Source: a phage. From it: a stretch of 2,363 nucleotides of DNA. The notes beneath the pieces are model-generated. The model made no database searches and had not been told where the DNA came from. It saw nothing but the letters and a program-made list of their open reading frames with translations. Of this stretch, positions 410 through 2,332 are shown piece by piece; the stretch's first letter is position 1, and each line of letters begins with the position of its first letter. The stretch lies in the sequence record PZ049727.1. One strand, given 5' to 3'. Position numbers and translations under genes: made by a program.

Positions 410-740
410 GTGCGCCAGGCATGGCGCGTAGCGCCGTGACTGGCGCTGTCGGGTTCACTGTGGTGGTGAGCCTGGCGACTTGGAGGTGAAAGTCCTCTAC
501 ACACCCGGCAAGGGGAAGTGTTAGCTGAAGGCAAGGGTGTCGCGGGCGACTGCGAATCTGAAGGAAGCCCGAGGCAAAATGCTGGCCTGACGAACAGGAA
601 GCGGATGAGGCGGCGCAGCGGGGTGAGGTGGCCATAATCGCCAAAGCCCGATACTTGCACGGAACGCTGCGACGTAGATCCGACAGGCATAAGCAGGAAG
701 GTCGCGCGAATTACCCTGGGAGATCTGTACGCTTGCCATT
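410..740 (+). ncRNA. Group II intron ribozyme 5' portion (domains I-III), non-coding
   Basis: About 330 nt between the 5' splice site and the RT ORF. It contains GC-rich helical segments and the motif GGCAAGGGTGTCGCGGGCGACTGCGAATCTGAAGGAAGCCCGAGGCAAAA (about 529-578). From memory, this closely resembles conserved domain I sequence of known class C introns such as the Oceanobacillus iheyensis intron. The domain limits were not folded and the 3' limit here is arbitrary (ORF start). Confidence 0.6.
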
Positions 741-2261
741 GTGCTACCGATTGTCGAGAGGCGACGGGATGGGCGTGCAGAAGTCAGCCGAGGCCGTAGT
801 AAGTGGCGGTCAACCACGCCATCAAGGGCCGAACAGGTCATGCCGCCAGTAGGCGTCAGCGTCTCGTCGATAACCGAAATGCAGAAATTTCTCCAAGAGA
901 AGACTGTCACCCCGAGTCCCGGCCAGAGGCCGAGGATGACGCCTGACAGCGCAGAGGTATCGACGGCGTCGGTGACGTGGACGAACGCGGAGCCGGACAC
1001 GCTGATGGAGCGGGTGCTTGCACCGGCGAATCTCAAGCGTGCGTATCAGCGCGTGGTCAGCAACAAGGGGGCGCCGGGTGCCGATGGCATGACGGTCGCC
1101 GACTTGGCAGGCTACGTGAAACAGTATTGGCCCATCCTGAAGGTCAGGCTGCTGGCAGGTGAATACCATCCCCAGGCAGTGCGGGCGGTCGAAATTCCCA
1201 AACCGCAGGGCGGTATGCGGCAACTGGGCATTCCCAGTGTCGTGGATCGCCTGATCCAGCAAGCCCTGCTGCAACAGCTCACGCCGATCTTCGATCCGCT
1301 GTTCTCGGACTATAGCTACGGCTTCCGTCCGGGCAGAAGCGCTCACCAGGCTGTCGAGATGGCCCGCACCCATGTGGCGGCGGGTCATAGGTGTTGCGTG
1401 GAACTCGATCTGGAGAAGTTCTTTGATCGGGTCAACCACGACATCCTGATGTTCTGTGTTGAGCGCCATGTCGAAGACAAACAGGTGCTCAGACTCATCC
1501 GCCGTTACCTCGAAGCGGGCGTCATGTCGGGCGGGGTTGTCAGCCATCGGCAGGAGGGGGCGCCGCAAGGCGGCCCGCTTTCGCCGCTGCTATCGAACAT
1601 CCTGCTCGATGAACTCGACCGTGAGTTGGAGCGGCGAGGCCATCGCTTCGTGCGCTATGCCGATGACGCGAACATTTATGTCCGTAGTCCGCGTGCTGGC
1701 GAACGAGTGCTGGCCAGTGTCGAGCGGTTCCTGAATCACCGTCTGAAACTGAGACTGAATCGGGACAAGAGTCGCGTGGCTGGGTCGTGGAAATGCGACT
1801 ACCTGGGGTATGGGATGAGTTGGCACTCGCAGCCTAGACTGCGAGTGGCAACCATGAGCCTGCGCCGTGTGCGCGACCGTCTCAGGGAACTGCTGCGAGG
1901 GGTGCGGGGCCACAAGATGGCGAATGTCATCGAGCGGGTAAACCCGGTGCTGCGAGGCTGGGCAGGCTACTTCAAGCTCAGCCAGAGCAAGCGTCCACTG
2001 GAAGAGCTGGATGGCTGGGTCAGGCACAAACTTCGCTGTGTCATCTGGCGGCAATGGAAGCAGCCCTCTACGAGGGCGCGCAACCTGATGCGCCTGGGAT
2101 TGAGCGAGGAGCGTGCCTGCAAGTCGGCCTTCAATGGCCGAGGCCCGTGGTGGAACTCAGGAGCGCCGCATGTGAATCAGGCGCTGCCGAAGAAGCTATG
2201 GGACAGACTTGGACTGGTCTCGATACTGGATACGATCAATCGGCTTAACCGCATGGCCTGA
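741..2261 (+). CDS. Group II intron-encoded reverse transcriptase/maturase (RT domain plus domain X, no DNA endonuclease domain); true start codon probably internal to this maximal ORF
   Basis: 506-aa maximal ORF from GTG 741 to TGA 2259-2261. Recognisable motifs are RT0 LMERVLAPANLKRAYQRVVSNKGAPGADGMT (from 1002), RT1-2 VEIPKPQGGMRQLGIPSVVDRLIQQA...YGFRPGRSAHQAV, RT3-4 LDLEKFFDRVNHDIL, RT5 GAPQGGPLSPLLSNILLDELD...FVRYADDANIYV (YADD at 1656-1667), RT6-7 LKLRLNRDKSRV, and domain X/maturase RGWAGYFK (1953-1976) followed by RHKLRCVIWRQWK. No Cys-rich or HNH motifs occur C-terminal to domain X. The N-terminal ~65 codons are Arg-rich and low-complexity and probably overlap ribozyme RNA. Candidate real starts are ATG 840, ATG 879, ATG 936 (preceded by AGAGG at 925-929, 6-nt spacer) and ATG 1005. 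Confidence 0.93.
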   Translation: MLPIVERRRDGRAEVSRGRSKWRSTTPSRAEQVMPPVGVSVSSITEMQKFLQEKTVTPSPGQRPRMTPDSAEVSTASVTWTNAEPDTLMERVLAPANLKRAYQRVVSNKGAPGADGMTVADLAGYVKQYWPILKVRLLAGEYHPQAVRAVEIPKPQGGMRQLGIPSVVDRLIQQALLQQLTPIFDPLFSDYSYGFRPGRSAHQAVEMARTHVAAGHRCCVELDLEKFFDRVNHDILMFCVERHVEDKQVLRLIRRYLEAGVMSGGVVSHRQEGAPQGGPLSPLLSNILLDELDRELERRGHRFVRYADDANIYVRSPRAGERVLASVERFLNHRLKLRLNRDKSRVAGSWKCDYLGYGMSWHSQPRLRVATMSLRRVRDRLRELLRGVRGHKMANVIERVNPVLRGWAGYFKLSQSKRPLEELDGWVRHKLRCVIWRQWKQPSTRARNLMRLGLSEERACKSAFNGRGPWWNSGAPHVNQALPKKLWDRLGLVSILDTINRLNRMA

Positions 2262-2262
2262 A

Positions 2263-2292
2263 CCGCCGTGTACGGAACCGTACGCACGGTGG
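2263..2292 (+). ncRNA. Group II intron domain V (catalytic hairpin)
   Basis: The lower stem pairs CCGCC (2263-2267) with GGTGG (2288-2292), including one G-U pair, and contains a CGC triad at 2264-2266. A 2-nt AC bulge sits at 2286-2287 on the 3' strand. The upper stem pairs GTGTACG (2268-2274) with CGTACGC (2279-2285), with loop GAAC (2275-2278). This is the canonical domain V architecture: about 14 bp, a 2-nt bulge and a triad near the base. It starts 2 nt after the RT stop codon. Confidence 0.8.
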
Positions 2293-2294
2293 TG

Positions 2295-2332
2295 TGGGAG
2301 GACGGCGGCCGTGAGGCCGCCTCCTACCCGAT
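2295..2332 (+). ncRNA. Group II intron domain VI with bulged branch-point adenosine, and 3' end of intron
   Basis: Distal stem GGCGGCC (2304-2310) / GGCCGCC (2315-2321) with GNRA-type loop GTGA (2311-2314). Proximal stem GGGAGGA (2296-2302) pairs with TCCT (2322-2325) and CCC (2327-2329), leaving A2326 bulged, which is the expected branch-point geometry. The intron is inferred to end 6-7 nt later, at ...GAT (2332). Confidence 0.65.

Follow-up and report, generated by a model that had tools for sequence, protein, structure and literature searches.

Results

Gene context and boundaries

The window, that is, the whole stretch of 2,363 nt analysed here (sequence record PZ049727.1), begins on the plus strand with the 3' end of a host gene for an NSS-family sodium-dependent transporter (positions 1-251, frame 3, stop codon TAG at 249-251). 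When translated, 3-248 matches MhsT (4us3; chain of 455 residues) over residues 379-449 with E = 3e-5; Pfam and NCBIfam gave no match for the 82-residue upstream fragment. Downstream, on the same strand, the 5' exon carries a motif with the form of an intrinsic terminator (382-406), made of a GC-rich hairpin and a T-run at 401-406, and reported by the terminator scan as GGGTGGGCTTCAGCCCACCT plus TTTTTATGGT. The hairpin can be drawn either in a short form (383-400) or as a long imperfect hairpin (339-400), and the fold of 252-409 has a z of -7.7. A 16-mer palindrome of the target hairpin, examined as a candidate REP family, occurs at 285-300 and 384-399, with no further copy in the flanks of loci L001-L080.

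Behind the transporter gene's terminator, 9 nt after the hairpin stem, lies a complete class C group II intron of 1923 nt (410-2332, plus strand), as shown by three Rfam matches and by its boundaries. It starts with GUGCG at 410-414 and finishes with AU at 2331-2332, in keeping with the group II ends GUGYG and AY. In a genome scan, the best 80 of 367 matches were kept as loci L001-L080; in nearly all of these 80, similarity to the window starts at 399-410 and stops at 2332-2338. Sibling copies are likewise 1923 nt long, and in the plasmid copies (45 plasmids) similarity ends at the same intron boundaries. Among the related copies at these loci, 56 unique insertion sites were compared.

Ribozyme RNA

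The ribozyme has the abbreviated form of class IIC, with about 420-430 nt of RNA 5' of the ORF region (410 to ~839) and 71 nt after the stop codon (2262-2332). Three Rfam models match on the plus strand: RF02001 (group-II-D1D4-3) over the domain I core at 540-709 (139.1 bits, E = 3.9e-30, full-length model match), RF01998 (group-II-D1D4-1) over the ribozyme segment between domain I and the ORF at 745-829 (55 bits, E = 1.4e-08, full-length), and RF00029 over domains V and VI at 2261-2332 (48.4 bits vs. a gathering score of 40, E = 7.3e-08). Domain V (2263-2292, plus strand) is formed by a 9-bp basal helix, an AC bulge at 2282-2283, a 3-bp distal helix, and a GAAC loop. Its CGC triad, at 2264-2266, stands where the Rfam consensus has AGC, and its distal stem (2272-2274 with 2279-2281) shows a 4-nt deletion and has 3 bp instead of the 5 of the RF00029 consensus. 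In domain VI (2296-2329, plus strand), as aligned to RF00029, a 14-bp helix is capped by a GUGA loop, and the branch-point A bulges out at 2326, 7 nt from the 3' end. The conserved 5' end, the domain V with CGC triad and AC bulge, and the domain VI with bulged A that the first-pass annotation had described are thus all present, and the covariance-model search that it had proposed yields the RF00029 match downstream of the ORF, where it had considered that a missing domain V/VI match would speak against an intron.

The pairing in these two domains is further supported by covariation. Over 11 variants, 99.7% of cells hold a standard pair and 4 pairs are changed on both sides: one of the 12 pairs of domain V (G-C to A-U, with 99.2% of cells paired) and three pairs of domain VI (with 100% paired). 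None of 500 shuffles reached the observed pairing or covariation score and 6 of 500 reached the observed count of pairs changed on both sides, while slid controls were just 34-54% paired.

Class IIC introns are distinguished by a CGC triad (AGC in IIA/IIB), by a domain V distal stem 2 bp shorter than in IIA/IIB, by a bulge of 11 nt in the epsilon-prime region that contains a conserved AGGAA, and by a short IBS1-EBS1 pairing (PMC1702495). Each of these hallmarks is found here. The bulge corresponds to an AGGAA-type segment of 11 nt, AUCUGAAGGAA, which is unpaired at 556-566 in the RF02001 consensus structure and which, following PMC1702495, is probably the epsilon-prime bulge.

Reverse transcriptase/maturase

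Between the D1-D3 matches and the domain V match, i.e., in domain IV, the intron carries an RT/maturase ORF on the plus strand (840-2261, 473 aa, with the start that RefSeq annotates in a 99.9% identical copy, NZ_ON248939.1). The frame is open from 741 to the stop codon at 2259-2261 with no frameshift, which agrees with the earlier statement that the ORF has neither frameshifts nor internal stops. Pfam recognises RVT_1 (~1194-1811, 2e-43; YADD at 1656-1667) and GIIM (~1863-2096, 3.9e-23) and no other domain, and the NCBIfam model TIGR04416 scores 407.8 bits vs. a cutoff of 300; the profile search suggested in the first-pass annotation therefore recovers the expected domains. That annotation had also noted the absence of an endonuclease (En) domain as expected for class C. 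The absence itself stands, since no Pfam domain beyond GIIM appears even at E up to 10 and nothing is found in the 86-residue C-terminal end past the end of GIIM, which is followed by 54 residues. As a pointer to class C in particular it does not hold: the En domain is absent in classes A, C, D, and E (PMC3552965), so the En-less state, being common to several classes, is no evidence for one of them.

Compared with proteins in the PDB, the RT scores best against class C enzymes. The four solved class C RT sequences give 461, 350, 274, and 267 bits, the first two being the GsI-IIC RT and the Eubacterium rectale class C RT, whereas IIB and IIA maturases give ~134 bits and the retron, Drt, and G2L4 RTs at most 64 bits. 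With PDB scores taken as a proxy for phylogeny, the RT would belong to the class C clade, and a grouping with non-intron RTs, named beforehand as an outcome that would count against an intron, did not occur.

Whether translation starts at 840 or at 1005 is uncertain. The conserved coding core runs from the ATG at 1005 to the stop at 2259-2261 (plus strand, 418 aa). An excess of variation at third codon positions begins at 1005, which favours this start; variable sites in 840-1004 are distributed over the codon positions as 16/55, 19/55, and 20/55, without a third-position excess. Arguing for an upstream start, the relative on E. coli plasmids (see below) lacks a Met at the site that corresponds to 1005. 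In-frame ATGs are found at 840, 879, 936, and 1005. A weaker possibility is that the in-frame leader 840-1004 may be translated as an N-terminal extension that is absent from solved IIC RTs.

Target sites and exon-intron pairing

Among the related copies at the best 80 of 367 loci, a hairpin followed by a T-run precedes the intron at 56/56 unique sites, with a mean dG of -19.8 kcal/mol for the site hairpins vs. -9.9 kcal/mol in control windows. The 5' exon ends in the pentamer TTATG at 405-409 (IBS1, plus strand), which is complementary to CATAA at 633-637 (EBS1, plus strand; CAUAA in the RNA), located in a terminal loop of domain I, a hairpin loop in the RF02001 alignment. This complementarity is a property of the family and covaries. 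Over the same 56 sites (best 80 of 367 matches), all five pairs can form at 46, and the mean is 4.79 of 5 pairs vs. 3.14 +/- 0.17 when the partners are permuted. At least ten EBS1 variants occur among the relatives in this set, each behind a complementary or near-complementary exon end; examples, as EBS1/IBS1, are CATAA/TTATG, ACAAA/TTTGT, AAGCA/TGCTT, CAAAA/TTTTG, CCAAA/TTTGG, and GCAAA/TTTGC.

On the other side of the intron, the first 3'-exon base (IBS3, position 2333, plus strand) is C. This base is C or T at 52/56 unique sites from the best 80 of 367 matches, with a pyrimidine background of 49%, and a pyrimidine IBS3 fits pairing with a G at a putative EBS3. Copies that are at least 99% identical lie behind at least 19 different hairpin sequences; since near-identical copies follow so many different hairpins, no sequence-specific pairing is possible upstream of the T-run. 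This indirectly suggests that an EBS2-IBS2 pairing is absent and that a stem-loop takes the position of IBS2, an arrangement that leaves room for pairing to the T-run itself.

Copies and state of the window copy

Near-identical copies of the intron have spread recently. They are 99.3-99.8% identical at many different sites in several genomes and, within the best 80 of 367 loci, number 10 in Stutzerimonas chloritidismutans AW-1 and 7 in Pseudomonas nitroreducens TX1. Their presence at different sites is indirect evidence for self-splicing and for a putative retromobility of the RNP.

We considered that the window copy could be the same class C intron in a dormant or crippled form, a relic that neither splices nor moves. 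Decayed relatives do exist, one with a frameshifting 1-nt insertion (L030) and one reduced by internal deletion to a remnant of ~730 nt (L083). Six positions of the window copy itself deviate from the family consensus, all within 963-2172; two of them are private substitutions (1592 and 2172). At 981-983 the copy has ACG where 21/23 siblings have ATG. None of the six differences creates a stop or a frameshift, and they are synonymous, common to siblings, or a conservative replacement of Met by Val. The substitution at 1592 is silent (CTA/CTG, Leu, third position), and the Val for Met at 2172 falls in the C-terminal tail, where the GsI-IIC RT has Leu. In-frame ATGs at 840, 879, 936, and 1005 remain despite the ACG. 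Furthermore, in the ribozyme segments 410-839 and 2259-2332 the window copy agrees at every position with the consensus of 22 near-identical Pseudomonas/Stutzerimonas copies, and YADD and all the aligned RT blocks are intact. A relic is therefore improbable in our view, and we favour an intact intron, a term which here designates a copy that, judged by its sequence, appears free of visible lesions.

Discussion

We conclude with high confidence that 410-2332 is a structurally intact class C (IIC) intron of a Pseudomonas/Stutzerimonas lineage, inserted at the terminator of an NSS-family gene and on the same strand. The coordinates and the class proposed in the first-pass annotation are borne out by the RNA, the protein, the target, and the boundaries alike. 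Reports of class C group II introns behind terminators go back to the early 2000s, and members of the class insert outside ORFs, just 3' of an intrinsic terminator or another inverted repeat. The element is an ordinary mobile element of bacteria, of a type that is well known; it is annotated in RefSeq as a 99.9% identical copy, and it had rightly been presented as a known type and not as a novel system. A literature search retrieved no published name for this Pseudomonas intron. One article (PMC12584367) was considered as a source for it and rejected, as it concerns a IIB1 intron.

The assignment to class C is supported by the RT scores, the RNA hallmarks, the target sites, and the EBS1/IBS1 covariation. 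It is very unlikely that the element is instead an En-less intron of another bacterial class (A, D, E, or F). Such an origin would accommodate the missing En domain, which is also lacking outside class C (PMC3552965), and it draws on the fact that these four classes have no solved RT structure to compare with: the PDB lacks an RT of any of them, and their exclusion follows from RNA and target-site features rather than from the protein comparison by itself. The CGC triad, the shortened domain V, and the AGGAA bulge are specific to IIC (PMC1702495), the 5' end, GUGCGCCAGGCAUGGCGC, is close to the GUGUGCCAGGCAUGCGC of the class C intron B.h.I1 as known from primer sequences (PMC1702495), and all 56 unique copies from the best 80 of 367 matches follow terminator-like hairpins. 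In addition, the RT aligns with that of a bona fide class C intron at 52% identity and without gaps. Within class C, we regard as just as improbable a membership of the IIC-attC sub-lineage, which targets integron attC sites rather than terminators and is a class C lineage known in Proteobacteria (PMC3001079). Here and at all related sites among the best 80 of 367 matches, the intron follows a perfect GC-rich hairpin and a T-run, with ordinary genes upstream, and the sites examined showed neither a bulged attC-like stem nor a cassette context. Finally, the idea that the RT stems from a non-intron system (retron, DGR, Drt/Abi, or G2L) with coincidental RNA matches is already refuted, because the scores that could suggest it (NCBIfam retron St85, 78.6 bits vs. 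a cutoff of 235; Drt2, 47 vs. 390; Drt3a, 44 vs. 200) are far under their cutoffs whereas TIGR04416 exceeds its own, GIIM is present, the matches of three ribozyme models are arranged correctly around the ORF, and retron and Drt chains in the PDB do not surpass the 64 bits given above.

The class C intron described here resembles several known systems. The model class C intron B.h.I1 of Bacillus halodurans (Toor et al. 2006, PMC1702495), with which we compared it through the published description and primers, also resides after an intrinsic-terminator stem-loop and shares the short IBS1-EBS1 pairing without EBS2, the CGC triad, the domain V distal stem shortened by 2 bp, the AGGAA 11-nt bulge, and a nearly identical 5' end. 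The two differ in host phylum (Firmicutes for B.h.I1 vs. Pseudomonadota here) and in the potential IBS1 pairing, which extends up to 5 bp here vs. the 3-4 bp stated for IIC introns (PMC1702495); B.h.I1 has been tested biochemically, while the window copy is known as a sequence. For the protein alone, the best solved relative is the GsI-IIC RT of Geobacillus stearothermophilus (PDB 6ar1, the TGIRT enzyme; 461 bits, E = 4.9e-137, 52% identity over 410 residues, ungapped). Both proteins comprise RT, thumb/X, and a short C-terminal domain and lack an endonuclease domain; the window ORF is open up to 55 codons further upstream, the translation of which is uncertain.

Closer relatives are found in Pseudomonas and on plasmids. 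The copy on the P. aeruginosa plasmid p30Pae2-KPC (NZ_ON248939.1; RT WP_020309285.1, annotated ltrA) is 99.9% identical over 1923 nt and shares the boundaries and the TTATG target end of the window intron, but it occupies a different insertion site; in fact, the flanks of the window intron (transporter gene and hairpins) are present in none of the best 80 of 367 loci. A sub-family in P. putida 31753, with at least 17 copies, is ~85% identical to the window intron (87% at the protein level) and has EBS1 ACAAA and target TTTGT vs. CATAA and TTATG here. In P. putida KT2440, 9 group II intron copies were counted, of which 2 are associated with REP palindromes (PMC1525189); the likeness, by description, is that of a multi-copy intron in Pseudomonas. 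More distant is a IIC intron located between bcsB and bcsC on ~190 E. coli plasmids (e.g., NZ_CP029688.1). It has the same architecture and Rfam matches and also stands behind a hairpin and T-run, and the first ~400 nt of its ribozyme are 84% identical; its RT (421 aa), in contrast, is merely 52% identical to that of the window, with a 14-residue gap near RT0.

By analogy with the literature, we propose the following cycle for the intron. Read-through transcription of the host gene would produce the intron RNA, and the RT/maturase encoded in domain IV would bind it and aid its folding, so that the ribozyme could excise itself by means of domain V, with its CGC triad, and of the bulged A of domain VI. 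The RNP so formed would then find DNA targets by their hairpin and T-run, by a 3-5 bp IBS1-EBS1 pairing (TTATG/CAUAA), and by a single IBS3-EBS3 pair, and would reverse-splice into the target strand. Since no endonuclease is present, cDNA synthesis would need a primer supplied by the host, most likely the nascent strand at a replication fork. The splicing chemistry, the formation of the RNP, and the priming route are carried over from published work in this scheme; priming from replication intermediates is itself deduced in the literature (PMC3898094), where insertion of En-less introns into the lagging-strand template is also described. In line with this, the GC skew of the flanks, read on the intron sense strand, is positive at 41/54 sites from the best 80 of 367 matches. 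This bias fits insertion into the lagging-strand template, but genes, and so their terminators, favour the leading strand in any case, which confounds it. Flank GC skew was used here in place of replichore position; the same orthologous site (L017, L020) has opposite orientation and position in different assemblies, so that coordinate 1 cannot be taken as the origin.

As a discovery, the intron carries little weight. Its value for annotation is that it points to mobile DNA recently active in the host and accounts for the 1.9-kb insertion between the terminator of the transporter gene and the downstream sequence. The related copies constitute a clean natural data set on target choice by IIC introns, with 56 independent sites and ten EBS1 variants. 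We see an even chance that the lineage forms a natural retargeting series, in which point changes in EBS1 have given rise to at least ten sub-lineages established on terminators with the matching pentamer. If so, several hundred natural insertions, together with the skew bias, could reveal how IIC introns read a DNA hairpin.

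Anatomy and class of the intron

Rfam covariance models detected three group II intron segments, all on the + strand, correctly ordered and full-length to their models: RF02001 (D1-D4-3) at 540-709 (139.1 bits, E=3.9e-30), RF01998 (D1-D4-1) at 745-829 (55 bits) and, downstream of the ORF, RF00029 (domains V and VI) at 2261-2332 (48.4 bits). The intron starts with GUGCG at 410 and ends with AU at 2332, and a frame without stops runs between the ribozyme matches from 741 to the stop codon at 2259-2261. The coordinates 410-2332 of the first-pass annotation are therefore exact, and the conserved 5' end and uninterrupted RT ORF that it described are indeed present, as are the CGC triad (2264-2266) and AC bulge (2282-2283) of domain V and the bulged A of domain VI (2326). 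When the written-out structure of domains V and VI was applied to 11 distinct variants from related loci, standard pairs occupied 99.7% of the cells and four pairs were altered on both sides. None of 500 shuffles attained the observed pairing or covariation score and 6 of 500 attained the number of pairs with two-sided changes, while sliding the partners by 1-3 columns left only 34-54% pairing.

The encoded protein matches only RVT_1 (2e-43) and the GIIM group II maturase domain (3.9e-23) in Pfam, its last 86 residues yielding the GIIM end alone and no further domain at E up to 10. The endonuclease domain is thus absent, as previously noted, but this is not specific to class C, since it is also missing in classes A, D and E (PMC3552965). 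TIGR04416, the NCBIfam group II RT/maturase equivalog, scored 407.8 bits (cutoff 300); a retron or Drt identity was rejected, the corresponding NCBIfam models remaining far under their own cutoffs. Among solved structures, the top match was the class C GsI-IIC RT (E=4.9e-137, 461 bits), followed by the class C Eubacterium rectale RT (E. rectale, 350 bits), RT fragments from R. intestinalis and E. rectale, also class C (274 and 267 bits), the IIB maturase (6me0) and LtrA (about 134 bits) and Cas6-RT-Cas1 (94 bits). Retron, Drt, G2L4 and LINE RTs reached at most 64 bits, which argues against a grouping with non-intron RTs. The GsI-IIC RT and the window RT share 52% identity over 410 residues with zero gaps, an alignment that includes YADD at 1656-1667.

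Every IIC hallmark listed by Toor et al. 2006 (PMC1702495) was found in the window: CGC replacing the AGC triad (Rfam alignment); a domain V distal stem shorter by 2 bp, here 3 bp, with a 4-nt deletion relative to the Rfam consensus; an AGGAA-bearing 11-nt bulge, AUCUGAAGGAA, at 556-566; an IBS1-EBS1 pairing of a few bp only; and no EBS2, with the IBS2 position taken by a terminator stem-loop. Furthermore, the first 18 nt of the intron closely resemble the 5' end of B.h.I1, a model IIC intron, as read from primer sequences in PMC1702495. The class C assignment, proposed from the outset, is supported by the agreement of RT similarity, RNA hallmarks and target sites.

Target sites and exon pairing

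Flanks were taken from all copies with at least 60 nt upstream, and every one has a GC-rich hairpin and a T-run directly 5' of the intron. At 56 unique sites, folding of the 41 upstream nt gives a mean of -19.8 kcal/mol, versus -9.9 for random windows of the same loci, and the T-run averages 6 nt. In the window, TTTTTATG follows a hairpin that a terminator scan placed at 382-401. Near-identical introns lie behind quite different hairpin sequences; therefore, recognition upstream of the T-run cannot be base pairing, in line with the lack of EBS2.

The terminal loop CATAA (EBS1, 633-637) is complementary to the exon end TTATG (IBS1, 405-409). This loop has ten variants among relatives, and in most the exon end changes to match: ACAAA with TTTGT (18 sites), AAGCA with TGCTT, CAAAA with TTTTG, CCAAA with TTTGG and GCAAA with TTTGC. 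Full 5/5 pairing occurs at 46 of the 56 unique sites, and the mean of 4.79 pairs compares with 3.14 +/- 0.17 when introns and sites were permuted (maximum 3.80 in 5000 permutations). The first 3'-exon base (IBS3) is C or T at 52/56 sites, as expected for pairing with G at EBS3. One copy in Pseudomonas sp. NFX224 (L069) has the EBS1 CAAAA, yet its exon end, TGCTT, fits the AAGCA loop found in L043 and L067, the two remaining copies of that genome; the discrepancy could stem, for example, from recombination or gene conversion among intron copies once they were inserted.

Upstream, an ORF that stops at 251 encodes the C-terminus of a sodium-dependent transporter of the NSS family (match to MhsT, E=3e-5). 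The 158-nt spacer (252-409) between this gene and the intron adopts a three-hairpin fold (z=-7.7), with hairpins at 285-300, at 317-334 followed by TTTT and at 339-400 followed by T6. The 16-mers at 285-300 (GTGGGCTGAAGCCCAC) and 384-399 are mutually inverted copies and look REP-like; no further copies were found in the flanks of the best 80 loci.

Start of the RT/maturase

The RT/maturase may start at either 840 or 1005. The RefSeq CDS begins at the equivalent of 840. In a codon-position test on 30 distinct sequences, the third-position excess of variation starts only at 1005: after it, variable sites by codon position number 99, 69 and 297 of 418, versus 16, 19 and 20 of 55 in 840-1004. All 10 representative sequences translated at the N-terminus retain the Met at 1005, which aligns with the N-terminus of the GsI-IIC RT. 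A related E. coli intron lacks a Met at this position and must start ~45 residues upstream of RT0. The leader 840-1004 is in frame upstream of the conserved RT core, with no indels or stops in 30 relatives. An inverted repeat (851-863 and 932-944) points to RNA structure belonging to domain IV, and positions 981-983 read ACG in the window and ATG in 21/23 siblings.

On ~190 E. coli plasmids, this E. coli relative (L082, NZ_CP029688.1, 2501-4376) lies between bcsB and bcsC as a full-length IIC intron, at a site for which the PLSDB gene table has no entry. Compared with the window, it has 84% identity in the 5' ribozyme but only 52% in its 421-aa RT. Immediately downstream of it, at 4387-4510, lies a match to the Rfam STnc490 sRNA (124 bits).

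Copies, intactness and mobility

A genome scan with one genome per species returned 367 stretches encoding relatives, of which the best 80, chiefly from Pseudomonas and Stutzerimonas, were kept. In nearly all full-length loci among these, nucleotide similarity to the window starts at 399-410 and stops at 2332-2338, the same limits as in 45 plasmids with a full-length copy. Within the best 80 of 367 loci, 22 copies at many different sites share 99.3-99.8% identity with the window, and near-identical copies number at least 10 in S. chloritidismutans AW-1 and at least 7 in P. nitroreducens TX1. A P. aeruginosa plasmid copy with 99.9% identity already carries the annotation ltrA, group II intron RT/maturase, so the element is a known and annotated one, in keeping with its initial description as a known type rather than a novel system. 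In many draft assemblies (L004, L027, L036, L046 and other ~1.9 kb contigs), the intron forms a stand-alone contig of ~1920 nt with very high coverage (e.g., 432, 368 and 599), as is characteristic of a multi-copy repeat collapsed in assembly.

Compared with the majority of the 22 siblings, the window differs at six positions, all within 963-2172, and its ribozyme segments equal the family consensus. Of the six differences, two occur in the window alone: 1592 (CTA/CTG, synonymous) and 2172, where Val replaces Met in the C-terminal tail. Judged from its sequence, the copy thus appears free of lesions, and "apparently intact" describes it well. Decayed copies also occur: L030 carries a 1-nt insertion causing a frameshift. 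In the prophage-like record EU982300.1 (Pseudomonas phage DVM-2008 / P. fluorescens Q8r1-96; L083, 1501-2232), an internal deletion leaves ~730 nt in which the 5' ribozyme is fused to what is left of the RT C-terminus, which carries stops and a threefold GGTGGACCATG repeat. The upstream hairpin and T-run and domains V and VI are still present, and the remnant is partly annotated as a hypothetical protein.

In introns with endonuclease-less RTs, cDNA synthesis is primed by nascent strands at replication forks (PMC3898094). As a rough strand test, we computed the GC skew of the flanks of the best 80 loci on the sense strand of the intron: the skew exceeds zero at 41 of 54 unique sites (mean +0.025, p about 5e-5), as would be predicted if insertion were into the lagging-strand template. 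This result is only suggestive because genes and their terminators favour that strand too. These analyses show the intron's anatomy and class, its target pattern and its pairings; by analogy with its family, the intron would splice, form an RNP and reverse splice into its targets.
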